Counted from the stretch's first letter, positions 1 through 42,671 are shown. The stretch is 64,000 nt of DNA from a virus (IMGVR_UViG_3300020404_002009:2149-66148), one strand, 5' to 3'. Notes: generated by a model not told the origin, from the letters alone. A program made the numbers and translations.

Positions 1-417
1 GACGGTCCAACGGCCTTTGTCAGTCCTGTGGGTGGTGACGAGTTCCACGCAGATTACGGCTACGATGGCACACCCATAAGAGCAGACAGCAGTTTTGGCG
101 GAAGGTTCCCCAAGGATCTGGGACTGGTATGGCCATGGCATGGCATACTGCAGGAATGGTTGGACAGGGACAACGCACTCGCCTGTTTCTGTGAAGTGCA
201 GAGACGTTACCCGCTGTTGGATCATGACCTGGTGCAGGCATGGTTGAACACCACACACCTGCTGAAGAACAACAGCCACAAGGACTGGATGAAGTGCTAC
301 ATGAAGGAAAAAGGTTATCCGTTCCAGGAGCCCGACACCAGATATGCGCCATGGAGGAGGGACACAGCGGATCGCGGCCGGGAACTGATGCCGCCACAAC
401 GCAATTTCCAAGAGTAA
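1..417 (+). CDS. Asparagine synthase-like C-terminal domain protein (5' truncated by window edge)
   Basis: Frame open from base 1 ([20 protein letters not shown]). GGDE motif and RRYPLLD resemble the Asn-synthase G.GGDE and R.P.LD motifs. Confidence 0.6.
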
Positions 418-425
418 TATAACAC

Positions 426-454
426 TTGACCATTTTGTGTTTTCAATGTATTAT
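426..454 (+). promoter_or_regulatory. sigma70-type promoter of clpP (leaderless)
   Basis: TTGACC(426-431)-17bp-TATTAT(449-454); ATG at 461 follows 6 nt later with no SD. Confidence 0.65.
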
Positions 455-460
455 AACAAT

Positions 461-1066
461 ATGCCACTTACACCAATAGTGATAGAACAGACATCCAAGG
501 GCGAGAGATCGTATGACATATTCTCTAGACTGCTCAAGGACAGGATAATCATGTTGGAAGGTCCAATAGGAGAGAACACCGCTTCGGTTTTGTGTGCTCA
601 ACTGTTGTTCCTGGAATCACAGGATGCCCAGAAGGATATAACACTGTATATCAATTCGCCGGGCGGACTGGTAACGGCAGGCATGGCGATATACGACACC
701 ATGCAGTATGTGAGATCGGACATACAAACAATAGTGGTGGGCCAGGCATGTAGCATGGGCTCACTTCTTGCGTCAGCGGGAACCAAAGGCAAGCGATTGA
801 TGTTGCCACACGCACGACACATGATACACCAACCACTGGGCGGAGCAAGTGGACAGGCCACAGACGTTGAGATCCGTGCCAATGAACTGCTACGTTGGAA
901 GAAAGAACTGACAGAAATATACGAAAAGACAACAGGACAACCACTGCAGAAGTTAAAAGACGACATGGAACGAGACAAGTTCATGAACGCCGAAGAGGCA
1001 GTTGCGTATGGACTTGTGGACAAGGTGATTACCAACAGAGCAGAAGACGACGACCAAGACAACTAG
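461..1066 (+). CDS. clpP: ATP-dependent Clp protease proteolytic subunit
   Basis: [24 protein letters not shown], catalytic ACSMG, MIHQP and ERD motifs. Start moved to MPLTP at 461. Confidence 0.97.
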
Positions 1067-1095
1067 ACTGGTAAAAAACGCACTGTAAATATCCA

Positions 1096-2337
1096 GTGAC
1101 CTTCGAAAACCTCAACAAGAATCTCAGAAACAGACACACCAGCATAGTAGCGGACGGCAAACGTTTTCACAGTGACATAGAGGCACTGATGCACCTGTCA
1201 AAGAAGTTAGGACCACTGTCTGAATTAGAGAATCGAATACCTCGTTACGACAACACACAGTCAAAAACTTTGGGAGAGTATCACAAAGGCCTGGGAGAAT
1301 ATCTTTCCAAGAAAGGTGTTTTGCAATTTGACATACATGGCAAGTTCATGGATACAGATTGGACCACAGAGCCAGAACACGATGTGTCTGTCTATATAGA
1401 CAGGATGTGCGAGGCCATAGAGCAGAACTATGATGAGATCATGATAAGTTACTCGGGAGGCACAGACAGCAACACAATTACGGACGCCTTCCTCAGGAGG
1501 GGCACCAGGAACGTGAAGTTAGTGAACTTTGTCAACACATCTCTACAGATACACGTGGAGGCACGTAAGTGGTTAGCAAAGCACACCAACGATGCCCTCA
1601 AATACAAATATGAAAATGCCATACGGAATCTCAATTGGTCTGTGCAGATTTTCGAAGCATGGCAACCGTATTCGGCAAAGCAATACGAGGACAGCATCGC
1701 CAACAGAGAGTTCATGGCATGGAACAACGATTACAACAACTTGCATTCCTGGGCACAGAACAGCGGCGAGATCATAGCCACGAGGAACACAGGCAGGCGC
1801 ACTTGCTGGATAGTGGGATATGAAAAACCACATCTAACAATTGACAATGGATGGTACTGCTTCAGGATGAGTCACGACATCATGGACACTCCTCTGTCAC
1901 CGGTTGATCCCAATGCAGAACTGATATATTTCTGGATGAATGACCTGGAACCCAACTTGATTAAAAAACTTGCACACTGCAAGGCAAAAGAAATACGCAA
2001 AATATTTGCAGAGAACAACACATCACCAAATAAGGAAAACGTTGAGATGATGAATCGTTCTCACTCTGCACACTACCACAGGCTCAACAAAGCAATGGGC
2101 ATGTCCGCTCTGACAGACTTCCTTGCTACAAACGAGACCAAAGATGGCTACTGGAAACAGCAAGACCTCGAACAGCAATCTCGTGTGTTGCACAAGGAAA
2201 CTGAGATTAAAAAGACATTAAGAGACAAGTATTTTGATGAAGTAATCAAGAAAGAAATCAATGCCAATCTCTTGGCCATGGAACTGCGTAGGCCCATAAG
2301 CATTGTTTCCAAAATAAAGAAAGTCATTGCCGCATGA
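1096..2337 (+). CDS. PP-loop (adenine nucleotide alpha-hydrolase fold) ATPase, function unknown
   Basis: ISYSGGTDS PP-loop motif; TAAATA at 1086-1091 just before the GTG start; ends in VIAA. Confidence 0.7.
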   Translation: MTFENLNKNLRNRHTSIVADGKRFHSDIEALMHLSKKLGPLSELENRIPRYDNTQSKTLGEYHKGLGEYLSKKGVLQFDIHGKFMDTDWTTEPEHDVSVYIDRMCEAIEQNYDEIMISYSGGTDSNTITDAFLRRGTRNVKLVNFVNTSLQIHVEARKWLAKHTNDALKYKYENAIRNLNWSVQIFEAWQPYSAKQYEDSIANREFMAWNNDYNNLHSWAQNSGEIIATRNTGRRTCWIVGYEKPHLTIDNGWYCFRMSHDIMDTPLSPVDPNAELIYFWMNDLEPNLIKKLAHCKAKEIRKIFAENNTSPNKENVEMMNRSHSAHYHRLNKAMGMSALTDFLATNETKDGYWKQQDLEQQSRVLHKETEIKKTLRDKYFDEVIKKEINANLLAMELRRPISIVSKIKKVIAA

Positions 2338-3665
2338 TAGAAACAGCGATTGTATTCATATGTGGAATAGTAAGCGGACTCCTGGCCGGTGTTCTTCCGG
2401 GCATAGGCGGTGTGGTTGTAATGACATTGGCTTTCCCTTTCCTGATACAGATAGATCCTGTGAACATATTAATTTTCTACGTCACGATGGCCAGCATAGA
2501 TCAATACTTTAATGGCATCACAGCAATAGTGTTTGGTGTGCCCGGGGCAAGTATGAACATACCAACACAAATAGAAGGACACACATTGTTCAGACAGGGC
2601 AAAGGCAACGATGCAATTATGTTCAGTGCTGTGGGCAGTTGGATATCCAGCATGTTCGCAATCGTTTTAGTGGTCATGCTGTTGCCAGTGCTATGGGGAG
2701 TGTACGGTGTGTGGACGTCCTTGATGCAAGGAGTGTTGTTAGGCATAGCCTCGTTGGTTCTTGTGTACGTTAGTAGAAATAAAATTTTACTGAGCACTTT
2801 GTTGTTTGTGTTTGGTGGGTTGCTTGGGCAAGTGGGGTACAGTGAAGAGACAGGTAGGTCAGTGATGACCCTAGGTTTTGATCTATTGCATTCTGGAATA
2901 CCAACACTTGCAGTTTTGGTCAGCCTGTTTGTTGTTCCTGTGTTGCTCAAGAGTTACCGTAAGCAACCTGGTAGTTTTAGTTTTCCAGGTGTGTCCTTTG
3001 ACGGATACAAGAAAGTGTTTGGCAAAATGAGGAACTACACGTCAACGTTGATCAGGAGTTCGTTCCTAGGTTCGGTTGGCGGATTGATGCCGGGCATGAG
3101 TTTTGGATTTAGTAGTTTGTTGGCCTATATAACAGAAAAGTCATTGCGTAAGAAACAAAAATTATACAAGCAAGGAGACTTTCCTAGTCTTATTGCAAGT
3201 GAAAGCGCCAACAACGCAGGTGTGTTCACGCAATTGGTACCATTGCTTTTCTTGGGCATTCCCATTACTGCCAGCGAAGCACTGATATACAACATACTCG
3301 AGATGAGGGGATTGCCTGTTGACATAGAATGGTTTAAGGGCACCTTTATGCAAGTATTGGTATTTTTCTTTGTGAGCTCAATAATAGGCTTGATACTTGC
3401 CGCAAAATATGTTAATCTACTGAAAGTGTTCAACGGCATACCGATTGAAAGAATTTATATCTCTGTGGTTGTGTTGTTGGCAGTTGCCCTGTGGCAAACA
3501 GGAGTCACGCAGTACGCAGGATTTAATCATCTGTTGATTGCTGTAATGATGTTGCCACTTGGAGTGTTATTACAAAAACACGATACCACTCCTCTGTTAT
3601 TTGGCTTTCTGTTGAGTGAGCCATTGATAGACAACTTACAACGAGTGTTTGTGATATATTTTTAG
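2334..3665 (+). CDS. tctA: Tripartite tricarboxylate transporter large permease TctA
   Basis: Polytopic membrane protein with GVLPGIG, FGVPG, GLMPG, ESANNAG and LFLGIP motifs. Confidence 0.9.
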   Translation: MIETAIVFICGIVSGLLAGVLPGIGGVVVMTLAFPFLIQIDPVNILIFYVTMASIDQYFNGITAIVFGVPGASMNIPTQIEGHTLFRQGKGNDAIMFSAVGSWISSMFAIVLVVMLLPVLWGVYGVWTSLMQGVLLGIASLVLVYVSRNKILLSTLLFVFGGLLGQVGYSEETGRSVMTLGFDLLHSGIPTLAVLVSLFVVPVLLKSYRKQPGSFSFPGVSFDGYKKVFGKMRNYTSTLIRSSFLGSVGGLMPGMSFGFSSLLAYITEKSLRKKQKLYKQGDFPSLIASESANNAGVFTQLVPLLFLGIPITASEALIYNILEMRGLPVDIEWFKGTFMQVLVFFFVSSIIGLILAAKYVNLLKVFNGIPIERIYISVVVLLAVALWQTGVTQYAGFNHLLIAVMMLPLGVLLQKHDTTPLLFGFLLSEPLIDNLQRVFVIYF

Positions 3666-3666
3666 T

Positions 3667-4446
3667 ATGAAAAAACTTTTACTACTTGTAGCATTTTTGT
3701 TTTGCACCAACGCAGTTGCAGAAAAGATAGATGTGATAAAACACTCAAAGCCAGGTGGACTCATTGACAGGATGAACGAAGTCATAGCACAGTCACTAGG
3801 CGATAATTTTGGAGAGTTCATAAAGGTTGAAAACTGTGTGCAGGCAATAAAGGTGATAGAAAAATCAAAGACTAAAGTGCTAACTGCATGGCCAACAGAA
3901 AGAGAAGCCGAGAATAGTCCTTGTAATTTGGATAACAAATTTATTCTATCTACGTTTAGTAATAGTCCCTATCACATAACCTACTTTGAATCAAACACCC
4001 AAGCCGCGGACTTGAACTATCTAAAGAGCGGGGAAGAAGTTATAGTTGGTGTTTGGGATAGCAATTTTTGGGCACCACCACAGACAAAATTTTTACAGGC
4101 CATTAATCCAAACATCAAAGTTGTGAGATACAAAAGCAAACCATTTAGGACAGCACTCGCAAGTGGTGAGATAGATTACAAGATAGTTTCCTTCCCGGGC
4201 AACGATCCAGTGTTGGCCATAATGAACGGAGAGACACTATTACCGGAACACGAGTTTTCAAACATGGGATATTCGATGATGTTTGCAGGTAACTTTGATT
4301 ACAATGTTCGATATGTGTACGAAAGCAAAGCATGGGAGCAACGCAAAGATGTCACGCACATGCCATGGTTGCAAGGACAGTACAAAGATTACAAAATAAA
4401 ATATGTGGAGCAAATGTTATCCGCTTTAACAAAAACAAAAGAGTAA
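3667..4446 (+). CDS. Divergent TctC/Bug-like periplasmic substrate-binding protein
   Basis: Signal peptide; KPGGLID and VRYKSK..ALASGEID resemble TctC motifs; directly follows tctA. Confidence 0.65.
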   Translation: MKKLLLLVAFLFCTNAVAEKIDVIKHSKPGGLIDRMNEVIAQSLGDNFGEFIKVENCVQAIKVIEKSKTKVLTAWPTEREAENSPCNLDNKFILSTFSNSPYHITYFESNTQAADLNYLKSGEEVIVGVWDSNFWAPPQTKFLQAINPNIKVVRYKSKPFRTALASGEIDYKIVSFPGNDPVLAIMNGETLLPEHEFSNMGYSMMFAGNFDYNVRYVYESKAWEQRKDVTHMPWLQGQYKDYKIKYVEQMLSALTKTKE

Positions 4447-4500
4447 AAATATGGACGTAATAAATATCATTAGGTACTGGCATACTGTAAGGAATATAAT

Positions 4501-5220
4501 ATGTACAAGACCGATCTAGACAAACAACTTCTCAAACACAACATATCCCCATGGGGAGAAAGCCAGCAGAATTCTTGGCGACTATATAATCTCAACAAGG
4601 CCAAGCCTGGATACCATAAGCACGGCAACGTTTGGAAACACTTTGCCAAGCACGGAGTCACAAAAGAAAGACTCACTGATTGGGATATACCAAAAGTTGT
4701 TGGAATCAGTAGCACACTAGGACTGCAGGATCAACTTCCAGAATCAAGACCCACATTGAATCACATCCGCGAACTAAACATTTACAGCGATCATGCACCG
4801 CATGACATAACAGTCACAAACGATCTTATTGTTAAGCAGACACAGGACTACACGCTCAACAAAGATGTCTACAACTCATTGCAAGACTTCTTGGAACCTT
4901 TGGGTTGGGAGAAAGCAAGGTACTCACGTTTCCAGCAGTATCCAAATGAGATGACAAGGGTGCATGTTGATATACACAGACAAATGAGCAACATGCATAA
5001 CTCTCCAACAGATCCTATACTGTGTGGCGAGGTAAGGATAGGAGTAGTGTTTCTAAATGACTGGGCCTATGGACAAGGATTTGGAATGGGCAAAGACATT
5101 GTGCAGAATTGGAAGATGGGAGACTTCTATGAATGGCCGTGGTTCTTTCCACATCACACATTTAATAATTCAAACGTACTTCGTAACTCACTGACTATCA
5201 TAGCACGTAAAAGATCGTAG
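4501..5220 (+). CDS. Putative 2OG-Fe(II)/cupin-fold oxygenase
   Basis: HVD...HHTFN...R pattern (HxD...H triad and terminal Arg strand). Confidence 0.55.
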   Translation: MYKTDLDKQLLKHNISPWGESQQNSWRLYNLNKAKPGYHKHGNVWKHFAKHGVTKERLTDWDIPKVVGISSTLGLQDQLPESRPTLNHIRELNIYSDHAPHDITVTNDLIVKQTQDYTLNKDVYNSLQDFLEPLGWEKARYSRFQQYPNEMTRVHVDIHRQMSNMHNSPTDPILCGEVRIGVVFLNDWAYGQGFGMGKDIVQNWKMGDFYEWPWFFPHHTFNNSNVLRNSLTIIARKRS

Positions 5221-5222
5221 TA

Positions 5223-6341
5223 ATGCAAATATTTGATTCTACATACACAGAGGACATGTATCCTTATAGGAATGAATGGCCAGAGGGAGTGTTTGATCAC
5301 CGCACAAAGAAAAAATATCCAACAACACTAACTGCTCTCTTGGATTGTCAGCACTTTGACGATCTAGAACTATACACAGGGTTCCAGGTAAAACAACCTG
5401 TACCGGACAAGTCTTTGGAAGAACTTTACAAAGATCGTATGAGAGCCTTACGTAACAAATATGATTATCTAGAATTGAGTTGGGGTGGCGGACATGACAG
5501 CACAATGATACTGAAAGTATCAGAGCAAACAGGTTGCCCACTTGATGTAATTTCAATGCAGTGCTTTGGAGATCCACGTGAAGATGATTCCAGATTTAAT
5601 TCGGAAATATCAAAAAATTTGCATCATGTGTTATCGTATGTTGAAATGTTTCCACAGACTAAAATTGTGTTCCTTGACATCAATGAAACATATAAGGCAA
5701 CGGTGGAGCACTATCTTGATAATAAGATGTGGTGTAGGATGACAACAATGGGTATGCTTGATGACATCTGCAGGATCAGTGCAGATAGATTTATTCCACA
5801 ACGTAATAATAAAAACGGTGCTGTGCTGACAGGCCAAGGATGGAAACCTGTGCTGTACAACAAACACTACGGCACTTGGTCATTGTACCAACAGCAGGAC
5901 ATGGTAAACCAATTGGGCAGTATAAGTTTTCTTGTGCCAACAATTAGGTTCTACGAAACCGCAGAAATTATGATCAAGGTCGGGGATGACATTAGGAAAA
6001 AATATAAAACCAGCGATCAAGATTATCTAGACAGAGCAGATGTTTCGCAAAATGCAAATGTATGGATTGGTAATAATGAATGGATACACGAAGAAATCAT
6101 GTACACAGAATTAAAAGGTGAAATTTTCCATGATGGTAAAGATCCTAAATTCCATATACCATGGCAAGATGAACCGAGGTTCGAATGGTTTTGCAAGAAC
6201 CAAAATGCCAAAACCATGTACAAAGAATATTTTGAGTGGGTTGAATTCCTTGACAAGAACATACATCCAAGTTGTATGCTCGAGGGTGGGATACTCAAAG
6301 GCGGACTCAAGAATGTCAAACCAATGATGATTGACTTCTAA
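5223..6341 (+). CDS. PP-loop ATPase, paralogue of 1096-2337
   Basis: LRNKYDYLELSWGGGHDS variant PP-loop; same position upstream of tctA. Confidence 0.65.
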   Translation: MQIFDSTYTEDMYPYRNEWPEGVFDHRTKKKYPTTLTALLDCQHFDDLELYTGFQVKQPVPDKSLEELYKDRMRALRNKYDYLELSWGGGHDSTMILKVSEQTGCPLDVISMQCFGDPREDDSRFNSEISKNLHHVLSYVEMFPQTKIVFLDINETYKATVEHYLDNKMWCRMTTMGMLDDICRISADRFIPQRNNKNGAVLTGQGWKPVLYNKHYGTWSLYQQQDMVNQLGSISFLVPTIRFYETAEIMIKVGDDIRKKYKTSDQDYLDRADVSQNANVWIGNNEWIHEEIMYTELKGEIFHDGKDPKFHIPWQDEPRFEWFCKNQNAKTMYKEYFEWVEFLDKNIHPSCMLEGGILKGGLKNVKPMMIDF

Positions 6342-6359
6342 CGAAGTGTATTTTATAAT
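6331..6359 (+). promoter_or_regulatory. sigma70-type promoter of second tctA
   Basis: TTGACT(6331-6336)-17bp-TATAAT(6354-6359); GTG 5 nt later. Confidence 0.7.
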
Positions 6360-6364
6360 TTAGA

Positions 6365-7774
6365 GTGGAACTAATTTTACTAAACTTATCGGTAATGCTA
6401 TCTGGGATATTCCTAGGATTGATTGCTGGCGTACTGCCGGGAATTGGTAATGTTGTTACTTTGATTTTGGTTTATCCTTTCATAACAGATTTTGATCTCT
6501 TTCAGATAGTTTTGTTCTATATGTGCCTGGCAGGCTCGTCGCAGTACACAGGCAGTGTTGTGGCCACAACCTTGGCAGTGCCAGGAGAGACTTCTAGTCT
6601 GCCGGCGGTCACAGAAGGCCATAGAATGTTTTTGTCTGGCAGAGGCAACTATGCAATCAGTAACAGTGCAATGGGAAGTTTTCTTGGTGCGGGTATAGCC
6701 TCACTGATAATGATGATATTTCTTCCGGTAGGGGTATATGCTATCTCTAAATTTTACAATACCCATGTGCAGTCTGTAATTCTAATAGGAGTTGCAATAT
6801 TTTTAGTTGCCACATACGCAGGACAAAAATGGTATCACAACCTTATGCTGTTTGCAATAGGATGGTTCTTGAGTTCTATAGGATTCTCTAAAGAACTTAT
6901 GCAGTACAACTGGGACTTTTTAATCGACTACCAAAAATTTTATTACCTACATTTTGGATTACCTCTTTATCCTGTGGTGGTTGCATTGTTTGTGTTTCCG
7001 ATATTCCTCAAAGAGTGGAACTCTCCCAGACCAGATGCAAGTGCATTGGATAAACTTTGGGACAACAAATTTATACAACACGCCAGAGAGTTTTTAAAAA
7101 ACATAGGATCTAGTATCAGAGGCACGGTCATTGGAAGTCTTTGTGGACTAGTTCCACACATGACCTCTACACTTGCCAGCAACGTTGCCTACATAAGAGA
7201 AAGGAATCGTGGAAAGAAGAACGGCACATATGACGAGAATGGTGATATCAAAAGTCTAGTAAGTGCGGAGACGGCCAATAATGCCGCGGGATTGACACAA
7301 CTTACTCCTCTGTTGCTAATAGGAATTCCTATCACGACAAGTGAAGCCATTGTGTTGAACATAATTGAAAACAACATGCAAATTATAAATTGGGAAACAA
7401 CTGTGTCTTCTGGTATGTTTGGTACACTTGTAATCTATTTTGTAGTAATGAATGCATTATGTTTGTTGGCGGCCTGGCCCTTTGCCAAGCATCTGCACGT
7501 ATTGTTTAGGATAAATCAGAAAACCCTATACACATTTACTTTCTTGCTTTTGATGTGTCTGGTATTCTACATGGGCACTATTGTAAATCAACAGATGTAC
7601 TATGTCGTGGTCACATTGGCCTTACTGCCAATTGGATATCTGTTGCGAAGATGGGATACCTTGATATTAATATTTGCCTTTGTGTTGCAGGGACAGATAC
7701 AAGGTGCTGTGATAAGATTGGCCCATATCTATAGCGACTGGCTACCATACATATCAAATCTAGGACGTTGGTAA
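6365..7774 (+). CDS. tctA: Tripartite tricarboxylate transporter large permease TctA (second copy)
   Basis: GVLPGIG, AVPGE, GLVP, ETANNAAG and LLIGIP motifs; many TM segments. Confidence 0.9.
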   Translation: MELILLNLSVMLSGIFLGLIAGVLPGIGNVVTLILVYPFITDFDLFQIVLFYMCLAGSSQYTGSVVATTLAVPGETSSLPAVTEGHRMFLSGRGNYAISNSAMGSFLGAGIASLIMMIFLPVGVYAISKFYNTHVQSVILIGVAIFLVATYAGQKWYHNLMLFAIGWFLSSIGFSKELMQYNWDFLIDYQKFYYLHFGLPLYPVVVALFVFPIFLKEWNSPRPDASALDKLWDNKFIQHAREFLKNIGSSIRGTVIGSLCGLVPHMTSTLASNVAYIRERNRGKKNGTYDENGDIKSLVSAETANNAAGLTQLTPLLLIGIPITTSEAIVLNIIENNMQIINWETTVSSGMFGTLVIYFVVMNALCLLAAWPFAKHLHVLFRINQKTLYTFTFLLLMCLVFYMGTIVNQQMYYVVVTLALLPIGYLLRRWDTLILIFAFVLQGQIQGAVIRLAHIYSDWLPYISNLGRW

Positions 7775-7789
7775 TTTGATTGGATAAGT

Positions 7790-7981
7790 ACTGATGTAAC
7801 GCCGAACATCATTCGACGTCGGGTTTAATGACGCTTGAGAGATTTACATATGCCAGTATCCAATCTCTCTTTACTCGCTTGAGAACGCCTTCCCGTATGC
7901 CTCCAGGCTAACTTTCACAAACACACGATTGCAGGATGAAGAACATAACTCCTATTTTCTATTTCCATGTGATCGTGTGTT
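7790..7981 (+). ncRNA. Candidate structured non-coding RNA
   Basis: ~260-bp gap with no ORF of 60 aa or more. Stems TGATGT/ACATCA, GAGAGATT/AATCTCTC and AACACACGATTGC/GTGATCGTGTGTT; ATAAGTA late-promoter-like motif upstream. Confidence 0.45.
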
Positions 7982-8008
7982 GACAAAACTTTAATAAAAA
8001 TGTAAAAT
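7980..8008 (+). promoter_or_regulatory. sigma70-type promoter of tctC
   Basis: TTGACA(7980-7985)-17bp-TAAAAT(8003-8008); AAGGA SD before ATG 8038. Confidence 0.75.
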
Positions 8009-8037
8009 TAGTAAAGTTAACTTAAAGGAAAATAAAA

Positions 8038-8910
8038 ATGAAGAAGACAATAATAGCGTTTTTGGTCTCGCTTATGACTTTTGGTATAGCGAACGCAAAA
8101 ACTATCGATTACCTGGTTACAGGTACCCCGGGTGGAACTGCGTATGATAACGCAGAATTGTTTGTTCCAATTCTTGAAAAAGAAACAGGCTTCAAGTTCA
8201 ACAAGGTAATAGTTGACAGTGCCGTTGGAGCAACAATATACCTTAAGAAAAGCAAAAACCCAAGCGTATGGATTCAGAACACACTGGATCATGAGTCTGT
8301 GGGAAACGAGTTGCAGGCGACTCCTGAATCATGGATTGGTACAGGATGGGGCAGAGCAATGGCTTTCTGTTCTAACGAAGCACTAGACGAAGCAGTTGCA
8401 AGGCTCAAAGCCGGCAAAAGACTTACGTTTGCTGTTTCAAACTCTTATGGTCAGCACTTGATCGACCCATTGGTTGATGTCACAGGCACACCAATGAAGT
8501 TTGTACCATATGGTTCGTCGGGCAAAAGCCTTAAAGGTTTTGTTGCAGGCGACACAGATATGTTGTTCACTAACATGCCAAAAGCAGTGAGTGGCGTAAC
8601 GAAGAACGGTATCAGTTGTTGGGCAAACACAGGACCAACAAAGATACTTGATATGGAACCAATGGCAACACTGTTTCCTGAATACAAGTACAATGACATT
8701 CAAACGTTCACATACTTGGATTCTGCGAACATGAGTGAGTCAGACGTCGCGACATTGAGGGCGGCATGGCAAAACGTGTTGAAGAACGAAGCAGTTGCAG
8801 GACACATCAAGAACAAGAAACTATTCCATCCATCTGTATACGGTGACCTTACACCAACAGAGTGGGCCGCGAAATTAGATAAAGCGGGTAAGAACTGGGT
8901 AGGCAAATAA
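8038..8910 (+). CDS. tctC: TctC/Bug family periplasmic substrate-binding protein
   Basis: Signal peptide ending ANA; TGTPGGTAYD and FVPYGSSGKSLKGFVAGDTD motifs. Confidence 0.8.
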   Translation: MKKTIIAFLVSLMTFGIANAKTIDYLVTGTPGGTAYDNAELFVPILEKETGFKFNKVIVDSAVGATIYLKKSKNPSVWIQNTLDHESVGNELQATPESWIGTGWGRAMAFCSNEALDEAVARLKAGKRLTFAVSNSYGQHLIDPLVDVTGTPMKFVPYGSSGKSLKGFVAGDTDMLFTNMPKAVSGVTKNGISCWANTGPTKILDMEPMATLFPEYKYNDIQTFTYLDSANMSESDVATLRAAWQNVLKNEAVAGHIKNKKLFHPSVYGDLTPTEWAAKLDKAGKNWVGK

Positions 8911-8919
8911 TCTAATCAT

Positions 8920-8943
8920 ATAGGTGGCCCTAGGGCCACCTAT
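8920..8943. terminator. Perfect 24-bp palindrome (terminator or mRNA-stabilising hairpin)
   Basis: ATAGGTGGCCCTAGGGCCACCTAT between tctC and the SDR gene; no strong U-tract. Confidence 0.55.
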
Positions 8944-8954
8944 TGAGGAACAAC

Positions 8955-9734
8955 ATGACAGTATTGATATGCGGAGCAAATGGATCGATAGGAAGTTTCG
9001 TAGCACAGGCAGAAGCAAAAGATCATAAAGTGGTGGGCACATACAGAAAGTATGATGAACACGCAAAAGAATTAGATAAAAATCCAAACATCACACTAGT
9101 GCGTAAGAACATGTTCGAGGGTACAGACATGAAGGACGTGGTGGACAAAGCCAGGGAGCAAGGTCCTATAACCAAAGTGTACTGGTTGGTAGGTGAGAGT
9201 TGGAACATCGGTTGGGACAAATTAAAATTACAAGACATTCAAAATGCAGTTAGGATGTGTTCGGAACCTTTGGCAAGCCTAATAATTGAATGCAAACCAG
9301 AGTTGTCAGATGAAAATAATTTAATGCGGTGGGCAAGTATCTCAGGAATAAGCAGTCTGATATATGCAGGTGGACCTAACAAGCCTGCCACAGGTGGAGC
9401 CAAGCACATGGCAGAATTTTATTTTAGATCTGCTAGTGCGTTTTGGACTTGGAAGCAAAACCTTTTTAACAACGTAATACTTGGCAACAGCAGAAGGACA
9501 AAGAATTTACACGTTGGATATCATGGTGATGCTCTCAAACAAATCTATAAGAACGATATTCCATTGGGCACAGGAACCCAATCAGAAAACGTTGCCAATG
9601 TGTTGTTATGGTTGAACAGCGATGTAAACAAATTCATGACAGGCCAAGATATCGTATTTGATGGTGCAGAAACAATCCGCACAAGGGATAATGTCAAAGA
9701 CACACCCATGAAGGATCATCCAAAATATTATTAA
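8955..9734 (+). CDS. Short-chain dehydrogenase/reductase (atypical active site)
   Basis: ICGANGSIG Rossmann motif, FMTGQDIVFDG C-terminal motif; the YxxxK Tyr is replaced (TGGAK). GAGG SD before ATG 8955. Confidence 0.8.
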   Translation: MTVLICGANGSIGSFVAQAEAKDHKVVGTYRKYDEHAKELDKNPNITLVRKNMFEGTDMKDVVDKAREQGPITKVYWLVGESWNIGWDKLKLQDIQNAVRMCSEPLASLIIECKPELSDENNLMRWASISGISSLIYAGGPNKPATGGAKHMAEFYFRSASAFWTWKQNLFNNVILGNSRRTKNLHVGYHGDALKQIYKNDIPLGTGTQSENVANVLLWLNSDVNKFMTGQDIVFDGAETIRTRDNVKDTPMKDHPKYY

Positions 9735-9925
9735 GCGGCGAATCTAAAGTATTCTGCTTCTTCGTCAGTGAACGGAACTTGATTTTTTGAATAGTCGGCC
9801 AGTGGAGCAAGTTCGTTTAAGCACTTGTCTTTGTACCTTTCCCAATACCATCCAGACTCATCCCATTTTTTTTCCTGTTTAGGAAAAGTCAAGTAATCTG
9901 CTTCTTCGTCAGTATAGGGCCACAT
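9731..9925 (-). CDS. Small acidic/aromatic protein with internal repeat and C-terminal AA
   Basis: MWPYTDEEADY...VPFTDEEAEYFRFAA; start overlaps upstream stop (TAATG). Confidence 0.7.
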   Translation of the reverse strand: MWPYTDEEADYLTFPKQEKKWDESGWYWERYKDKCLNELAPLADYSKNQVPFTDEEAEYFRFAA

Positions 9926-10083
9926 TATTGTATTACCTTCCAATGGTCAGGCCATTGTTCATTAGTTTGTTCATTTACAGTCACGAACTCCGTGTCCGGT
10001 GTTTCATCCCAACAACAGTCGTCACGAGAAACACATTTGCTTTCTACATAAACCTTTAGGCTTTTCTTTTTGTCTGCGTACAT
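9925..10083 (-). CDS. 52-aa hypothetical protein (not in ORF track)
   Basis: MYADKKKSLKVYVESKCVSRDDCCWDETP...WKVIQ; AAAGGA SD; coupled to the next gene. Confidence 0.65.
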   Translation of the reverse strand: MYADKKKSLKVYVESKCVSRDDCCWDETPDTEFVTVNEQTNEQWPDHWKVIQ

Positions 10084-11896: not shown

Positions 11897-11972
11897 GCCG
11901 CTTTAGCTCAGTTGGTAGAGCAACTGATTTGTAATCAGTAGGTCCGCGGTTCGAATCCGTGAAGCGGCACCA
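11897..11972 (+). tRNA. tRNA-Thr(TGT)
   Basis: Cloverleaf; ACTGA-TTTGTAA-TCAGT anticodon arm; GGTTCGAATCC; encoded CCA. Confidence 0.95.
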
Positions 11973-12054
11973 TGTAAACCAATTATGCCTGAATTACCAT
12001 TATCACCAAAAAAGTCAATGGCCTTGCATGTGATTGGTGTATTTGGACAATTAA

Positions 12055-12129
12055 GGTCCCTTCGTCTATCGGTTAGGACACGTGGTTTTCATCCTCGAAA
12101 GAGGGGTTCGACTCCCCTAGGGACCGCCA
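12055..12129 (+). tRNA. tRNA-Glu(TTC)
   Basis: GGTCCCT acceptor stem; loop TTTTCAT; GGTTCGACTCC; CCA; one T-T mismatch in the anticodon stem. Confidence 0.92.
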
Positions 12130-12135
12130 CACAAT

Positions 12136-12212
12136 CTCCGGGTAGTTCAGTTGGATAGAATACGAGTTTCCTAAACTTGGGGTCGGGGGTTCGAATCCCT
12201 CCCCGGAGGCCA
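12136..12212 (+). tRNA. tRNA-Arg(CCT)
   Basis: CTCCGGG/CCCGGAG acceptor stem; loop TTCCTAA; CCA. Confidence 0.93.
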
Positions 12213-12217
12213 ATAAT

Positions 12218-12294
12218 GGACCGGTAGCTCAGTTGGATAGAGCGTGAGTTTGCGGAACTCAAGGCCATAGGTTCGAATCCTGTCCGGTCCACCA
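12218..12294 (+). tRNA. tRNA-Arg(GCG)
   Basis: GGACCGG/CCGGTCC acceptor stem; TGAGT-TTGCGGA-ACTCA anticodon arm; CCA. Confidence 0.92.
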
Positions 12295-12617: not shown

Positions 12618-13303
12618 GATATGGACATTACTCAGACAATGAACTAAAAACTTTTGCCGACTGGCCCTTCAGGTGCCCAAGTTGGAATCCTATGCCGGAT
12701 GGCAAGAAGAATGTGGTTGTTTTGGGTTGTAGCCACACCTGGGGTGTTGGACTGGAGGAGAACGAAACATGGGTGCATCTAATCAGTAAGCACAACAATA
12801 AACGTCTGCGATTCTGGAACCTAGGACAACCTGGTGCCAGTCCCGAAGCGTGTGTTCGCATATTGTACGCCTCCGAAAAGGTTATCAATCCAAAAATAAT
12901 AATTGTGTGTTGGCCTGAGATTAGCAGGCGCGAAAGGCTTGAAACAAACGCACCTCGCAACCTTACAGGATCTGATGAAAGACTGCGTCACGAGGACAAC
13001 GAGACTGATATCAATAATTTTCTTAAATCGGTATTTTTTCTTGAAAAGTTTGCAGAGAAAAACGGTTGCAAGACATTTCATTGTTTTGCCCATGACACTG
13101 TTGATTTAAAAAAACATAATCCAGAACTTAATATTATCCAGGACTATTCATTGAGAAACTGTTGGCCACACTGGGATAAATTCACAGCGAGAGAACTTCA
13201 TACAGAACCTTCGCGAGCAAGGGATGGTATACATTTTGGTGTTGACAATCACAGGCGTTTTGCAAATATAATTATAGAACGTCTTGGTCAGAAGTTAAAG
13301 TAA
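12614..13303 (+). CDS. SGNH/GDSL hydrolase-like protein
   Basis: LGCSHTWG, NLGQPGAS and DGIHFG blocks. Confidence 0.75.
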   Translation: MRYGHYSDNELKTFADWPFRCPSWNPMPDGKKNVVVLGCSHTWGVGLEENETWVHLISKHNNKRLRFWNLGQPGASPEACVRILYASEKVINPKIIIVCWPEISRRERLETNAPRNLTGSDERLRHEDNETDINNFLKSVFFLEKFAEKNGCKTFHCFAHDTVDLKKHNPELNIIQDYSLRNCWPHWDKFTARELHTEPSRARDGIHFGVDNHRRFANIIIERLGQKLK

Positions 13304-14307
13304 TCATTTATATCTATCTTACGTAACCAATCCTGCTTTTTAATAAACAGATTCAATTGCTCATCGTTTTCCTTGCCCACAGCGATTACTTTTGCAATGT
13401 CCTTACACACCTTATAAGAAGAGTTTCCTAGTTTTTCTTTTGCGGATAAGGTGAATCGATTTTTGTGTGTGGGATCATAGACTTCCGGATCATTTAGGAA
13501 TGCCCACGAATGTTCTAGATTGTGTTCAGTCACAAAGTCGAGTATCCTTGGTAAGTTCCCCACATTGATACTGCTTACAGTGGTCCAGGTGTTTAGTCTT
13601 AAAAGCGGAAATCTTTTTTGCAACTCTTTGTATGCTATTACGCTTTTGCTAAACTGTTTCCATTTGATAGGCCACCTTACATAATCGTGGACATCTTCGA
13701 CGCCGTCAAGACTCAAAGTCACTATCACCATGATTCTTTTGCTTAAGATTGTTTCAAGTTCGGGAATCATACGCGAACCGTTCGTGTTCATTCTCACTAT
13801 CCTAACGTTTTTTGGCAGGCGTCCCAATATTTTTTTATAGTTCTTGCTGGCAGTTGGCTCTCCTCCATTTACATCGATCTCTAAAATTCTGTTTAGTGGC
13901 AACTCCCAAAATTTTACATAGTTGTCAACACGTGGATAATCTTTGGATCCCAGGCTTCCGATTTTAGTACTTAGACCTGAATTGCATGTTTGACAAGCAC
14001 TGTTGCATACATTGTCAAGTACACCGCCAACAACAAGGTAGTCGTCCCTAAAAGGTTGTAGCACCTTGTGCCTTTGAATACTTTTGAGACGTATACTTTC
14101 CTGATTTATTTCTTCGGACTGTTTACATCTTACGCATTCGTCTGGCCACTGATCGTTTTCCATTTTGTTTTTGATATCTCTCAACCATTTGCTTTTGTCA
14201 AGTTGTTCAACTGATTCGAATCCCATTTTAGTATCCATGTGGCCGCACTTTCCCACAGTGCCGTTTCGATTCAATCTTACAAAGTGTTTTAATCTAGGAC
14301 AATACAT
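13288..14307 (-). CDS. Radical SAM enzyme with N-terminal SPASM/twitch-like Cys domain
   Basis: CNSACQTC, NGGEP and MNTNGS motifs; N-terminal C...C...CxxC. Confidence 0.85.
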   Translation of the reverse strand: MYCPRLKHFVRLNRNGTVGKCGHMDTKMGFESVEQLDKSKWLRDIKNKMENDQWPDECVRCKQSEEINQESIRLKSIQRHKVLQPFRDDYLVVGGVLDNVCNSACQTCNSGLSTKIGSLGSKDYPRVDNYVKFWELPLNRILEIDVNGGEPTASKNYKKILGRLPKNVRIVRMNTNGSRMIPELETILSKRIMVIVTLSLDGVEDVHDYVRWPIKWKQFSKSVIAYKELQKRFPLLRLNTWTTVSSINVGNLPRILDFVTEHNLEHSWAFLNDPEVYDPTHKNRFTLSAKEKLGNSSYKVCKDIAKVIAVGKENDEQLNLFIKKQDWLRKIDINDYFNF

Positions 14308-14803
14308 TTTTAACCTTATTTAAAACTTCTTTGATGTTGTAAGTGCTGTTGCACATTGATAACAATACGTTATCCTCCTTGCCATAATCCTTTAAGGTTC
14401 TCACAGGTTTTTTGTTTGGTGTTTCGTTCTTGCGGCTGTGTGGTATAGCACTCATGGGTAACAACTGTATGTCACCGTCATAGAATTTACTGAGATGCAT
14501 TATCCAAAAATATTGAGGTAGCCAATGCTTGTCTACTAGTTTGTCATTTTCGATTTGCCTTACAATGTCATCATTTTCGATATTGTTCAGTTGTGAATAT
14601 TTGTTGATGCCCCCACGCCAACGGAGCAATGGATCTCTTATGAAAACATTAATTTTTTCACACTGTTTAATTTCGTCATTATACAGGCTTTGTTCTTTAA
14701 CCTTTTGAAAGCCGTTCCATCCACACTTGAATATCGGGTATATCCATTGTCCTTTGTACAGAATGACCTCGCAACTGTCGGTAAAAATTTTAGTCAAGTT
14801 CAT
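14294..14803 (-). CDS. Sulfotransferase family 2-like protein
   Basis: IFKCG, FIRDPLLRW and DKHWLPQ resemble PAPS-binding motifs; start MNLTK. Confidence 0.6.
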   Translation of the reverse strand: MNLTKIFTDSCEVILYKGQWIYPIFKCGWNGFQKVKEQSLYNDEIKQCEKINVFIRDPLLRWRGGINKYSQLNNIENDDIVRQIENDKLVDKHWLPQYFWIMHLSKFYDGDIQLLPMSAIPHSRKNETPNKKPVRTLKDYGKEDNVLLSMCNSTYNIKEVLNKVKNVLS

Positions 14804-15959
14804 GTAAATCCAACTCCATAAAAAGATCATGGAAAACATTTTTTGAATCTAGTTTCCTTCTTTGGTCCATTTTTCCTATGTTGTAATAAAAGCCTTTCAT
14901 GTTTTTTTGCCATTGTGTGTCCGTGTAATATTTCAACAAGTTTTGATAACTGTTTTTCAAATAGCCTTGGGGGTTGCCATCTAATTTCTCCTGCAATTTT
15001 TCTTTTATGCTATCCAACATCTTCTCTGGTAGATTCATTATATTCAGCCATGACGGTCCAGACACAGGACCAATTATGAAACTGTTGTCATGGAATCCTT
15101 TCGACTGCAGGAAATCAACGCAGTCATGAATGCTTTTGTAATTAAGAATAAAGTGAAGCATATTGAAACTAATTTTATGTTTCAATGTTGTGAGCACATC
15201 TAGATTTTTTGTGAAGTCGCTCCACTTACCTAGATGCCTTATGTATTCGTATTCTTTTTCAATTGCTTCTATGCTAACAGTCCAATGAACGTTCTCGAAG
15301 TCGCAAAGCAGTTCGAAGATACCGGTCTGTGTTGTACTTAGATTTGTGTTCACTCTTACAGTGCATTCCGGATTTTTCTCTTTTAATAATTTTAAGAACT
15401 CAAAATTTTCTTTCATTAACATTGGTTCGCCGCCTGCTAGATAAACATTTTCTAAATTTTCTATGTTCTCAAAAACAAATTGTTTTACCTCGTCTCTTGC
15501 TTCTTTGTTTGATTTTACCTTTACACCCAACTCCTGAGCCCATTTGCTACTGTACTCTGGCATACAATAAACACACGCCTGGTTGCATGAATTTGTCCAT
15601 CGCAGGTCAACATGTTTCAATGTGAAATTTTTTACGTCATCAAAAGTTTTAAGGTCTGTGTTGGGAACAATTCCTTTCAAATAGTACAACCTACTACTGA
15701 TACTACTCAAATCATTTGTATTCTTTTCTTGGTGATAACAACCTTGGCAGTTGCTGGGTTTTTGATCTTGCAACATAGCCTTTTTCAAATTGACATTTTG
15801 GTCACCCGACATTATGTCCTTGATGTTTGCAGTGTTTATGTTGCCTAGGGTGTTTTTGGCAATTATGCAATTTTTAACTCCACCGTTGGGTTCGAGTTCG
15901 AATCCTGTCCAAGGCAGAGCACATATACTTTTGTTCTTCAAAAATGTTTTTGGATTCAT
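14790..15959 (-). CDS. Radical SAM enzyme with N-terminal twitch/SPASM-like domain
   Basis: CALPW...NCI...CQGC, then CNQACVYC, AGGEP and NTN. Confidence 0.88.
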   Translation of the reverse strand: MNPKTFLKNKSICALPWTGFELEPNGGVKNCIIAKNTLGNINTANIKDIMSGDQNVNLKKAMLQDQKPSNCQGCYHQEKNTNDLSSISSRLYYLKGIVPNTDLKTFDDVKNFTLKHVDLRWTNSCNQACVYCMPEYSSKWAQELGVKVKSNKEARDEVKQFVFENIENLENVYLAGGEPMLMKENFEFLKLLKEKNPECTVRVNTNLSTTQTGIFELLCDFENVHWTVSIEAIEKEYEYIRHLGKWSDFTKNLDVLTTLKHKISFNMLHFILNYKSIHDCVDFLQSKGFHDNSFIIGPVSGPSWLNIMNLPEKMLDSIKEKLQEKLDGNPQGYLKNSYQNLLKYYTDTQWQKNMKGFYYNIGKMDQRRKLDSKNVFHDLFMELDLHELD

Positions 15960-16468
15960 TACAGTGTGCCTTGCTCACTTAAAACTTGTTTGACATATTG
16001 TTCAGCCGGGATACTATCGTCGCTACTGAATGACTGCGTGGCAATATTTCCCGGACGTATCAAATTCATTTTGATATTGCTCGGTTGCATCTGCAGTTGT
16101 CTGTGGGCATGTTCCAGTGCCATCTTTTGATTCTTGTACTGCATTGACTCTCTCATCGTAAGACCTTTGATATCTATGTCTTCGGTTTGTTTGCACAACT
16201 GTGTTGAAATGTTCCATATGTAGTGTACATCCTTGTAGGGTTGCCATCTGTGCCACACTTCGAACAACAGTTCAGTCTGTGCGTACATGCTGACAGCGTT
16301 GTTGATGAAAAGGTCACATGGTTCTATTAGTGACGCGGTGTGTGCCACACGCCTGATGTTCTCACCATCACTCCTTGAGATGCCTACTATTTCATGACCT
16401 TGTGCGGCCAGTTGTTTCGCAAACTCTTGGCCTATGCCTTTCTTGTGTCCAGTAATTGCTATTTTCAT
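15959..16468 (-). CDS. Short SDR-family oxidoreductase
   Basis: ITGHKKGIG, FINNA, YKNQK and IRPG motifs. Confidence 0.8.
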   Translation of the reverse strand: MKIAITGHKKGIGQEFAKQLAAQGHEIVGISRSDGENIRRVAHTASLIEPCDLFINNAVSMYAQTELLFEVWHRWQPYKDVHYIWNISTQLCKQTEDIDIKGLTMRESMQYKNQKMALEHAHRQLQMQPSNIKMNLIRPGNIATQSFSSDDSIPAEQYVKQVLSEQGTL

Positions 16469-16477
16469 ACGCACTGG

Positions 16478-16487
16478 TATTTAAATA
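16478..16487. promoter_or_regulatory. Bidirectional late promoter TATTTAAATA
   Basis: Perfect palindrome giving TAAATA on both strands between divergent starts at 16468 and 16494. Confidence 0.6.
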
Positions 16488-16493
16488 GGTGCA

Positions 16494-16976
16494 ATGAAGT
16501 CTTATCACATACTGAACTGTGACACGCAACAGAAGATCGCGGACAGCCTATACGGCTATTACGTTGGCATAACAGCCAACAAGACCGTTACCGATTTCTG
16601 GAATCATCTCACAAGGGAGCAGATAAAACAGTATATGTTGATACCCAACAATCCAACGGTCAAATGGTTTGACAGCATGGGGCTCAAAGTCAGAGACATG
16701 AGTTTCACCCTGTACAACGAAACAGTCAAGACCGACATACACAAAGACCAACCACCTGTCGTGGCAAAGATTAACTTCCCGGTGTTGAACACAAAGGACA
16801 CCTATAATGTTTGGTTCGACGATGACAGGAATGAAATAGACAGAGTTGAGTGTGATAGGCCCATTGTGTTGCGTTCCGACATCTTGCACACAGTTGAGAT
16901 AGGAAAGTCAGCGTCGTTTCCGAGACTGCAATTTAGTTTTTGTTTTTATAACGAACCGCTTCAGTTATTAGCGTAG
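16494..16976 (+). CDS. Putative 2OG-Fe(II)/cupin-like protein
   Basis: IHKD...INFPV...LHTV...RLQFS pattern. Confidence 0.55.
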   Translation: MKSYHILNCDTQQKIADSLYGYYVGITANKTVTDFWNHLTREQIKQYMLIPNNPTVKWFDSMGLKVRDMSFTLYNETVKTDIHKDQPPVVAKINFPVLNTKDTYNVWFDDDRNEIDRVECDRPIVLRSDILHTVEIGKSASFPRLQFSFCFYNEPLQLLA

Positions 16977-17970
16977 GACACTCGATAAATCTATCATTGC
17001 GTTTGTTTATGCGTGACACCACGTGTGCCAACTGCTCCTGATATTCCGGCGTGTGCCAGATGTTCTGTGAGTCAAAGTCAGAGATGGTTCCCCAGTCCTC
17101 TATCCTGTTGAGCCACACCCTGTCTGCACCGAACTGTTCGCCCAGGTCAATTATGGTCTCCATCTCATGATAGTTGTCCTTCTGCACAACAAAATGCAAT
17201 ATGAATCTGAAACCGTGTTTCTGTTTTTGTTCCGCCATGCATTCCAGTCCCTCCAGTATCTTGTCCCATTTGCCTCCCAGTCGGAGTTTCTCGTATGTTT
17301 CCTTGGAGGCCCCGTCTATGCTGACGCCAAGTTCGTTGAGATTTTCGATGACGTTGGGAACCTTGTTATGGAACTCCTTGAACATCAATCCGTTTGTCAG
17401 TATGGAATATTTGATGTTGTTGGTCCTGGGTGTCTGGCTCATGAAGTGCCTGTACACGTGTGACGCAAATGGATCTCCGTCGGAGCCTATGTGCACCTGT
17501 ATGGGGTGCTTGTGGTCCCACAGCCATTCGTTGATCCTGTCCGCCAGTCTGATTCCGAGATTGAACGCAGAACCCTCCTTGTGGAATATCATGGACTTCC
17601 TGCAACTCGGACATCGCAGATTGCAACTGTCATCTATCGCCAGTCTGAGATGCTGTATGCGTTCCGGCTGGCCATGCAACACAGCATTCGACTTGATGTA
17701 GGAGCACTGCTTGGCGTTGCAGTACCTGTAGGTGCCGTCCGCGATTGATCCTTGCAGGTGTTGGCGCATGGGCGAGCCAAATATCTCCTCCAGCGATTTG
17801 ACCTGCAGGTTGCCTATGCTCTGTGGCAACCATGACTGGCACTCACAGGCGTAGCACGATCCCTGCTTGTCGATCAGCACAGTGTCATATGGTCTGGGAC
17901 ACCTGTTCTGTATCTTGAGGTCCTTGCTGGTGTCTATGCCGTAGTGTTGGAACAGTCGTTGGTTTATCAT
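16933..17970 (-). CDS. Radical SAM enzyme with N-terminal SPASM-like domain
   Basis: CPRPY...CYACEC...YC...C, then CNLRCPSC, DGDPF, TNG and VSIDG. Confidence 0.88.
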   Translation of the reverse strand: MINQRLFQHYGIDTSKDLKIQNRCPRPYDTVLIDKQGSCYACECQSWLPQSIGNLQVKSLEEIFGSPMRQHLQGSIADGTYRYCNAKQCSYIKSNAVLHGQPERIQHLRLAIDDSCNLRCPSCRKSMIFHKEGSAFNLGIRLADRINEWLWDHKHPIQVHIGSDGDPFASHVYRHFMSQTPRTNNIKYSILTNGLMFKEFHNKVPNVIENLNELGVSIDGASKETYEKLRLGGKWDKILEGLECMAEQKQKHGFRFILHFVVQKDNYHEMETIIDLGEQFGADRVWLNRIEDWGTISDFDSQNIWHTPEYQEQLAHVVSRINKRNDRFIECPTLITEAVRYKNKN

Positions 17971-36115: not shown

Positions 36116-36128
36116 GAAAATATTTACA

Positions 36129-40644: not shown

Positions 40645-40663
40645 TTAATTTAATTATGGTTGT

Positions 40664-42642: not shown

Positions 42643-42671
42643 TTTGGCAATAATTAGTATATAATTATCGC

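Follow-up and report, generated by a model that had tools for sequence, protein, structure and literature searches.

Why would a phage carry genes for a transporter and its binding protein side by side with the gene for a PP-loop enzyme, and carry them twice? The question is raised by a 64,000-nucleotide (nt) stretch of viral DNA (IMGVR_UViG_3300020404_002009:2149-66148, hereafter the window), which was taken from a virus record of 66,148 bases (positions 2149-66148) and in which genes for a PP-loop protein (PP), for TctA, the permease of tripartite tricarboxylate transporter (TTT) systems, and for a secreted TctC/Bug-type binding protein (SBP) follow one another in two cassettes. TTT systems import carboxylates, and enzymes of the PP-loop class adenylate carboxyl or carbonyl groups and hand them on to a nucleophile, either nitrogen or sulfur. 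The best reading of the locus, to which we give a probability of about 0.5, is that a carboxylate is imported, then adenylated and turned into an amide. The two sets are anciently diverged versions of one phage-specific module made up of a PP-loop enzyme, a short-form TctA and a secreted TctC/Bug binding protein. Version 2 lies inside a five-gene block, OXY-PP-TctA-SBP-SDR (OXY, or orf4501, encodes a probable oxygenase, and SDR a protein of the short-chain dehydrogenase/reductase fold), and version 1, with three genes, is inserted at a variable spot between clpP and this block. All eight open reading frames (ORFs) proposed in a first-pass annotation were recovered at the same coordinates on the plus strand (Table 1), and its assumption of a phage origin agrees with the viral record and with the phage-type DNA polymerase, DnaB helicase, primase and further helicase encoded elsewhere in the window. 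Because its CheckV completeness is 18%, the record probably represents only part of a very large phage genome.

Evidence that the three genes belong together comes from their neighbourhoods in other viruses. A search with aligned PP1 homologues yielded 23 viral loci, and one peptide pattern searched in 185,579 species genomes (genome_contigs) added two short contigs of metagenome-assembled genomes with TctA directly after PP; TctA adjoins PP in 16 of these 25 loci (14/23 viral, namely L004-L014, L018, L024 and L026, and 2/2 from genome_contigs). Seeding with an alignment of the phage TctA proteins gave 16 viral loci, eight of them on contigs already retrieved, and PP adjoins TctA in all 16; in each of the eight new loci PP lies before and SBP after TctA, L037 being cut inside PP. 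A locus search seeded with the single TctA1 sequence found nothing. Three arrangements of the trio were seen (PP-TctA-SBP, TctA-SBP-PP and SBP-TctA-PP), and start/stop overlaps between PP and TctA are frequent; in the window, the end of PP1 and the beginning of TctA1 share 4 nt. In addition, the three proteins diverge in step across 19 trios (171 pairs), their pairwise identities giving Spearman coefficients of 0.48, 0.49 and 0.61 that none of 2000 label permutations reached. The result that would have refuted the first-pass annotation, PP-loop homologues not enriched beside tctA and tctC, was thus not obtained. From these sequence comparisons, the PP-loop, TctA and TctC genes appear to be a conserved, functionally linked phage unit.

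The assignment of the PP proteins draws on motif, family and predicted fold. PP1 carries the loop motif SGGTDS and PP2 the variant GGGHDS, and PP2 matches a family profile built without it (E = 8.9e-20), in agreement with the original PP-loop calls. Among 52 diverse members of the family, G122, D124, S125 and K291 are invariant and K244 is nearly so; G-x-E-K-P and K291 are conserved motifs of the family's own. An AlphaFold2 model of PP1 based on 21 homologues (predicted local distance difference test, pLDDT, 85.8; predicted template-modelling score, pTM, 0.87) was compared exhaustively with known structures using VIA-align, and the top matches were human asparagine synthetase (9b6c, Z 8.8, 253 residues aligned), a value barely above the background stated for VIA-align, and the Escherichia coli enzyme (1ct9, Z 8.6, 283 aligned), with the asparagine synthetase alignments spanning model residues 3-407. 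Beta-lactam synthetase (1jgt, Z 7.8), TilS (1ni5, Z 7.5) and TsnB9 (Z 7.2) followed, and GMP synthase, PAPS reductase, NadE and LarE were among the other matches of the HUP fold, within a range of Z 8.8-5.2. Structure searches of the ESM Atlas likewise listed Asn_synthase clusters for PP1, at TM scores of 0.50-0.57. The expectation of a HUP/PP-loop fold was thus borne out by the motif and by the AsnB/HUP-type fold of the model, from which we place PP1 in the PP-loop superfamily, closest to the AsnB-type synthetase domain; since the Z values barely exceed background, the assignment is to the superfamily and not to the AsnB family itself. In line with this distinction, the Asn_synthase model PF00733 had no match at E <= 0.01 in PP1, PP2 or any of the 52 members, and the glutaminase features looked for in PP1 and PP2 were not found, the proteins beginning with MTFEN and MQIFD, with no N-terminal Cys, and having no GATase match in Pfam. 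PDB profile searches with the PP family profiles A1 and A4 returned insignificant matches only, and the library matches of PP1 were weak (QueC-like phrog_1550, 0.0035; LarE, 0.0055). A complex prediction for PP1 and TctA1 scored 0.00 and, being run without controls, is evidence neither way.

The family to which these proteins belong is large, dominated by viruses and without a Pfam model. A HMMER search with the PP1 profile over 1.84 billion representatives found 1395 proteins at E <= 0.001, counted as clusters at 50% identity, of which 1004 reached E <= 1e-10, and nearly all were 340-440 amino acids (aa) long. Pfam touched two of the 52 diverse members (ATP_bind_3, best 4.2e-4), and their PHROG matches were scattered over PAPS reductase, QueC-like (1/52) and NAD synthetase families. 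The ESM Atlas clusters nearest to PP1 are 85-100% viral.

For the transport proteins, the assignments of the first-pass annotation held. TctA1 and TctA2 match PF01970 (E-values in Table 1) over profile positions 3-415 and 1-415 of 423, and TctA1 aligns with cellular TctA from end to end (residues 7-441 against 20-456), with about 45 C-terminal residues missing. The near relatives of TctA1 are proteins of 439-447 aa, 44-77% identical and encoded on metagenomic contigs, beyond which the score falls to cellular TctA proteins of ~500 aa that are 25-31% identical; the phage permeases form a separate short-form clade. Both binding proteins have Sec-type signal peptides and a PGG..D motif, and neither single sequence matched Pfam at E <= 0.01. 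Near full length, the profile of the SBP2 group matched Bug27 (2qpq, 2.4e-13), BugE (3.4e-11), the terephthalate-binding protein (6.4e-10), AdpC (2e-9) and BugD (6.3e-9), and all of its top 11 PDB matches were TTT binding proteins (E 2.4e-13 to 9.7e-6). The SBP1-group profile alone found no TTT binding protein in the PDB. Aligned with the SBP2 group by hhalign, it gave a probability of 99.7% and E = 3e-26 over 241 columns, and on this profile alignment SBP1 is taken to be homologous to the SBP2 group.

How are the two cassettes related? The first-pass annotation had described one gene order repeated with diverged paralogues. The trio of PP-loop, TctA and TctC genes does occur twice, but the fourth genes, OXY and SDR, are not paralogues, and tandem or local duplication of a cassette was rejected: TctA1 and TctA2 are 33% identical, PP1 and PP2 are alignable only around the loop motif (E = 0.001), and the two fall into separate, well-supported deep clades of a 37-row PP tree (10 rows, all TctA-linked, for PP1 and four rows for PP2). 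Cassette 1 is, moreover, an insertion or deletion (indel) with respect to close relatives. Five contigs (L036-L039 and L044) share the OXY-PP-TctA-SBP-SDR block after clpP, and cassette 1 is found in none of them; in a DNA alignment, window 447-1060 corresponds to L038 517-1133 and window 4471-9735 to L038 2314-7561, with window 1061-4470 as the indel between clpP and orf4501. Given this indel and the layout in the relatives, orf4501 heads cassette 2, rather than closing the first copy as had been annotated, and cassette 1 is a mobile three-gene unit. At the same spot, L036 has ~53 bp, L038 and L044 have two other ORFs (sulfotransferase-like and FTR1-permease-like; L038 1134-2267) and L039 has three, including an ADI-like gene (2385-4074). 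The spot next to clpP is a cargo hotspot. The nearest relatives of cassette 1 lie in L004 and L005, with TctA proteins 50-52% identical. Across the close relatives of cassette 2, identities are 90-92% for ClpP, 90-91.5% for SDR, 85-89% for TctA2 (about 69-70% in L036), 81-86% for SBP2 (74% in L036) and 68-71% for orf4501. We also noted that the fast-diverging PP2-type gene in L036, L038 and L039 (51% identity, where its neighbours have 86-91%) is still a sister lineage on the tree.

In the mechanism that we propose, the binding protein would capture a carboxylate in the periplasm of the infected Gram-negative cell and TctA would carry it inward on the membrane gradient. The PP-loop enzyme would then adenylate the carboxyl (or carbonyl) group of the imported substrate, and AMP would be displaced by a nitrogen nucleophile, whether ammonia, a separate amine or an amine within the molecule, leaving the substrate trapped and converted. 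The sequences show gene identities, homologies, conserved adjacency, co-divergence and phage specificity; from these we infer the direction of transport, the class of substrate, the adenylation chemistry and the order of the steps. Chemically, the most economical scheme is import followed by carboxyl activation to yield an amide or lactam; enzymes of the AsnB-type PP-loop class act by adenylating carboxylates, which would fit a carboxylate cargo.

The oxygenase and SDR of cassette 2 could tailor the substrate or the product. In orf4501, H155-x-D157...H218 is invariant among 14 sequences, as in the HxD..H call made at first pass, and is followed, ten residues past the distal His, by R228-x-S230, which we take to be a 2-oxoglutarate (2OG)-binding motif. 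Its model is confident for the C-terminal half only (pLDDT about 70-80), and a Foldseek search of the PDB with this half gave 422 matches at E <= 0.001, which were to cupins and to dioxygenases of the Fe(II)/2OG type. Pfam gave no match, and the PDB profile search was weak (proline 3-hydroxylase, E 0.084); orf4501 is probably an Fe(II)/2OG oxygenase. The SDR call agrees with a match to adh_short_C2 above the cut-off, and the start at 8955 given in the first-pass annotation is an ATG, with an upstream TTG start at 8943. The position of the catalytic Tyr is unmatched in the alignment with FabG (2p68), where TGGAK stands in place of YxxxK, and the protein may be an atypical or non-redox SDR.

Several results weigh against import followed by carboxylate activation. 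PP1 and PP2 have no Pfam match at E <= 0.01 and no useful match in Pfam or NCBIfam; Foldseek comparison of the PP1 model with the PDB gave nothing at E <= 0.001, its best rows, all above that value, being carbapenam synthetase, NAD synthetase, GMP synthase and LarE; and the top VIA-align match is as close to background as noted above. No TctB gene was found, the genes of each cassette being contiguous and the 263-nt gap between TctA2 and SBP2 holding no plus-strand ORF of at least 30 aa; TctB may come from the host, or the permease may be TctB-independent. The locus samples are biased, because the search patterns were drawn from the same families, and they include near-identical contigs (L008/L014, L010/L011, L016/L017, L024/L025, L037/L038/L044 and L041/L042). 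In nine of the 23 viral loci PP occurs without TctA (L015-L017, L019-L023 and L025): SBP lies beside it in L016, L017, L019 and L021, PP is alone in L015, L020, L022 and L023, and L025 is cut at the PP gene. Conversely, a TctA-SBP pair stands without PP in phage record G001 (L047, G001:C1:281000-296000, cluster at 3209-8140, in a 316-kb phage). The PP protein also diverges faster than its partners: in the nearest relative PP is 51% identical, as against 88% for TctA and 86% for SBP, in L036 it is 30% identical, as against about 69-70% and 74%, and PP identity lies below TctA identity in 169 of 171 pairs. An enzyme of the housekeeping type, acting on one fixed small substrate, would not usually diverge so far; relaxed constraint, changing specificity and an arms race are all possible causes.

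Two of these exceptions have features of their own. The G001 cluster, like the cassettes, joins TctA, an SBP (352 aa) and the same oxygenase family on a phage, and differs from them in having two P-loop kinase-like genes and a cytidylyltransferase-like gene in place of PP and a TctA nearer to the Pfam model (307 bits); it therefore appears to follow the same logic of import then activation with a different activating chemistry. In L016, L017, L019, L041 and L042, two to four PP genes are interleaved with SBP genes. Since L016, L017 and L019 are entirely without TctA, their arrays suggest the use of a host permease.

The low conservation of PP keeps alive a second, distinctly less probable explanation, that the PP-loop enzyme attaches the acid or amino acid, once imported, to a glycan, virion protein, tRNA or DNA belonging to the phage or its host. 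Faster evolution of PP than of TctA and SBP would be expected if the enzyme tracked a variable target, and sugar-nucleotide genes (DegT aminotransferase, 1.3e-57; NAD epimerase/dehydratase, 3.4e-31; GDP-mannose-dehydratase-like, 4.5e-50) and tail-fibre-like genes lie near the trio in other loci. The window itself encodes AsnB, GDP-mannose dehydratase and a GT61 glycosyltransferase at 36-43 kb, not adjacent to the cassettes. Against this, no acceptor was identified, the TIGR03573-type N-acetyl-sugar amidotransferase model did not match PP1 at E <= 1, no conserved Cys or nucleic-acid-binding domain was seen in the 52 family members, and TGT/DpdA was found in none of five trio-bearing records, including ones that are 91% and 100% complete. 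In its strongest form, an autonomous 'uptake-and-ligate' device in which a high-affinity TTT importer of the phage's own feeds a fast-evolving, phage-only PP-loop ligase that attaches the acid to a macromolecule, the idea is similarly tentative. If it were true, different cassettes, such as the two here, would handle different acids or targets, and the whole would amount to a modification system of exchangeable modules, a class of gene set that is new to viral metabolism.

It is unlikely that the genes are independent and adjacent merely through joint mobility in a hypervariable phage island. The unrelated cargo found in relatives at the cassette 1 spot (sulfotransferase-like, FTR1 permease-like and ADI-like), together with the occurrence of PP without TctA and of TctA without PP, is what such co-travelling would produce, but the adjacency survives three gene orders, extends across deep clades of the PP tree and holds in 16/16 TctA-seeded loci, the divergence of the proteins is correlated and their coding regions overlap. 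Still less probable is a role for the PP-loop protein as an ATP-sensing or regulatory partner of the transporter instead of an enzyme acting on its cargo, in the manner of TeaD, a universal-stress-type protein encoded with the TeaABC TRAP (tripartite ATP-independent periplasmic) transporter. The HUP fold of PP1 does match universal stress proteins (e.g. 3s3t, Z 6.9), and the translational coupling with TctA is tight, but the 52 diverse members retain the complete PP-loop, its D and S invariant, together with conserved lysines, the protein (340-410 aa, with an AsnB-like C-terminal helical part) is much larger than a universal stress protein, and in several loci PP stands alone. Least probable of all, and hard to credit, is that TctA and TctC alter the host envelope, excluding other phages, exporting or sensing, with an unrelated role for PP: there is no direct support for it; in its favour are the ~45 missing C-terminal residues of the short-form TctA and the lack of TctB, whereas the full-length alignment with cellular TctA, the Pfam match over 413 of 423 positions and the retained binding-protein motifs speak for ordinary transport. 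Two specific pathways were also considered and rejected. One was 7-deazaguanine (QueC-type) DNA modification, TGT/DpdA being absent from the window's record as well as from the five records above. The other was NAD salvage from imported nicotinate by a Bug27-like SBP and a NadE-like PP, for which a NAPRTase/NAMPT-family gene was found in 0/5 records and NadE ranks below AsnB in the fold matches; host enzymes could still serve.

Table 1. Coordinates of the cassette genes, their neighbours and the glycan-type island, counted from the first nucleotide of the window
Feature	Position (nt)	Strand	Remarks
Faintly AsnB-like ORF, 3' part	1-417	+	whole ORF 373 aa, contig 1444-2565; runs off the window start
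ClpP-type protease	437-1066	+	PF00574 6e-82; left border of variable spot
Cassette 1 as inserted segment	1061-4470	none	missing at the same place in close relatives
PP1, predicted cytoplasmic PP-loop ATP pyrophosphatase	1096-2337	+	SGGTDS at residues 120-125, nt 1453-1470
TctA1, short-form TTT permease	2334-3665	+	443 aa; PF01970 2.4e-62
SBP1, secreted divergent TctC/Bug-like binding protein	3667-4446	+	signal peptide, KPGG motif, two near-invariant Cys
OXY (orf4501), cupin/double-stranded beta-helix (DSBH), probable Fe(II)/2OG oxygenase	4501-5220	+	first gene of cassette 2
PP2, second PP-loop protein	5223-6341	+	variant loop GGGHDS at residues 88-93, nt 5484-5501
TctA2, short-form TTT permease	6365-7774	+	469 aa; PF01970 2.9e-65
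Conserved non-coding gap	7775-8037	+	263 nt, between TctA2 and SBP2
SBP2, secreted TctC/Bug-family binding protein	8038-8910	+	SBP2-group profile vs Bug27 2qpq 2.4e-13
SDR-fold protein	8943-9734	+	adh_short_C2 4.8e-12; last gene of cassette 2
Full AsnB with glutaminase domain	36129-37889		glycan-type island
GDP-mannose 4,6-dehydratase	39661-40644		glycan-type island
GT61 glycosyltransferase	41554-42678		glycan-type island
DUF6071	42672-43367		glycan-type island

The surroundings of the cassettes are listed in Table 1. The first-pass annotation had placed an Asn-synthase-like gene just upstream; the gene directly upstream encodes ClpP, and the ORF before it is only faintly AsnB-like (GATase_6 5.6e-4 and GATase_7 5.7e-4, both below the cut-off; Asn_synthase E 0.006) and lies outside the PP family of the cassettes (A4b profile, E 1.8). 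In L022, a homologue of this ORF (30% identity) has a PP gene and a DegT gene nearby. The gap between TctA2 and SBP2 contains blocks at about 7797-7925, with three ACGCC-containing repeats and a CGACGTCG palindrome, that look at least as well kept as the flanking genes among four relatives, and a promoter-like TTGACA-17-TAAAAT sequence at 7980-8008, ahead of SBP2. The element at 7797-7925 could be an operator or an element of the 3' untranslated region. A riboswitch in this gap was considered and rejected, with no Rfam match and folding z-scores of -0.22 (plus strand) and -1.88 (minus strand).

Further afield, four clustered tRNA genes (Thr-TGT, Glu-TTC, Arg-CCT and Arg-GCG) lie just 3' of the cassettes at window 11897-12294, followed by three radical S-adenosylmethionine (radical-SAM) ORFs on the minus strand (13288-17970). 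In two of these (14790-15959 and 16933-17970) a SPASM domain is N-terminal to the radical-SAM core, which is an unusual order, and a truncated SDR-like ORF lies among them at 15959-16474; relatives of the radical-SAM genes are found near the trio in L005, L009 and L012. The glycan-type island spans 33634-43367 and includes several ORFs without a family. The first 2.5 kb of the contig, in which the faintly AsnB-like ORF lies, have a G+C content of 55-60%, compared with ~40% for the remainder, and could be a recent acquisition or an assembly join.

In tblastn searches of 50,697 GenBank phage records, PP1 and PP2 had no relatives and TctA2 had seven weak matches (<27% identity) to bacterial-like or unannotated fragments; megablast of window positions 1-10000 gave no match. 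In the literature, tctA on viral contigs has been described as a putative auxiliary metabolic gene whose role was stated to be unknown (Roux et al., 2014, PMC4164917; review PMC6359870), and tricarboxylate-transport genes were noted in a viral island (PMC8115048). The first-pass annotation had recognised no characterised system with this layout. That view needs qualifying, given that viral tctA is already in print (PMC4164917), but it stands for the combination: what the cited passages of the three papers share with our locus is a TctA-domain gene on a viral contig, given as a domain match, and those passages describe no PP-loop partner, binding protein or module (PMC4164917, PMC6359870 and PMC8115048). 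Literature searches for TTT in combination with either asparagine synthetase or jumbo phage gave no paper, and those joining TctA, phage, PP-loop and virus-encoded found primer-like or unrelated matches only. The module is a phage-specific combination of known superfamilies, previously undescribed. Because both the permease and the enzyme form phage-specific clades, they are not recent pick-ups from a host.

Phage-encoded transporters are rare, and for a decade tctA has appeared in lists of viral genes as one of unknown role. The present analysis assigns it to a conserved three-gene module that is mobile and that also encodes a binding protein and an ATP-dependent PP-loop enzyme. The ligand of the binding protein should be what the enzyme acts on; such a match would assign a role to a widespread family of dark-matter proteins, and the identity of the ligand would reveal which compounds are scavenged in infections by uncultured large phages of aquatic bacteria.

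The module can be compared with several characterised systems. With AsnB-type synthetase domains (AsnB, beta-lactam synthetase, carbapenam synthetase and TsnB9), the PP family has in common the SGGxDS PP-loop and 253-283 aligned residues, but it is smaller (340-410 aa as against 500-600), lacks the Cys of the N-terminal nucleophile (Ntn) glutaminase and has no PF00733 or GATase match. With the bacterial TctCBA and Bug-TctAB systems, such as the citrate system of Salmonella and the Bug proteins of Bordetella, the phage set shares the TctA permease and a secreted binding protein of the TctC/Bug fold; in contrast to them, it is encoded by phages, has no TctB, is joined to a PP-loop gene, and combines single SBPs that fall below Pfam detection with a permease of ~440-470 aa instead of ~500, in a separate clade at 25-31% identity. 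A precedent in strategy is PstS of cyanophages, a phage-encoded periplasmic phosphate-binding protein that relies on the ABC transporter of the host. There, as would be the case here, a binding protein supplied by the phage to the periplasm raises uptake during infection; PstS comes without a coupled activating enzyme, whereas the present phage also encodes the permease and a predicted ATP-dependent enzyme.

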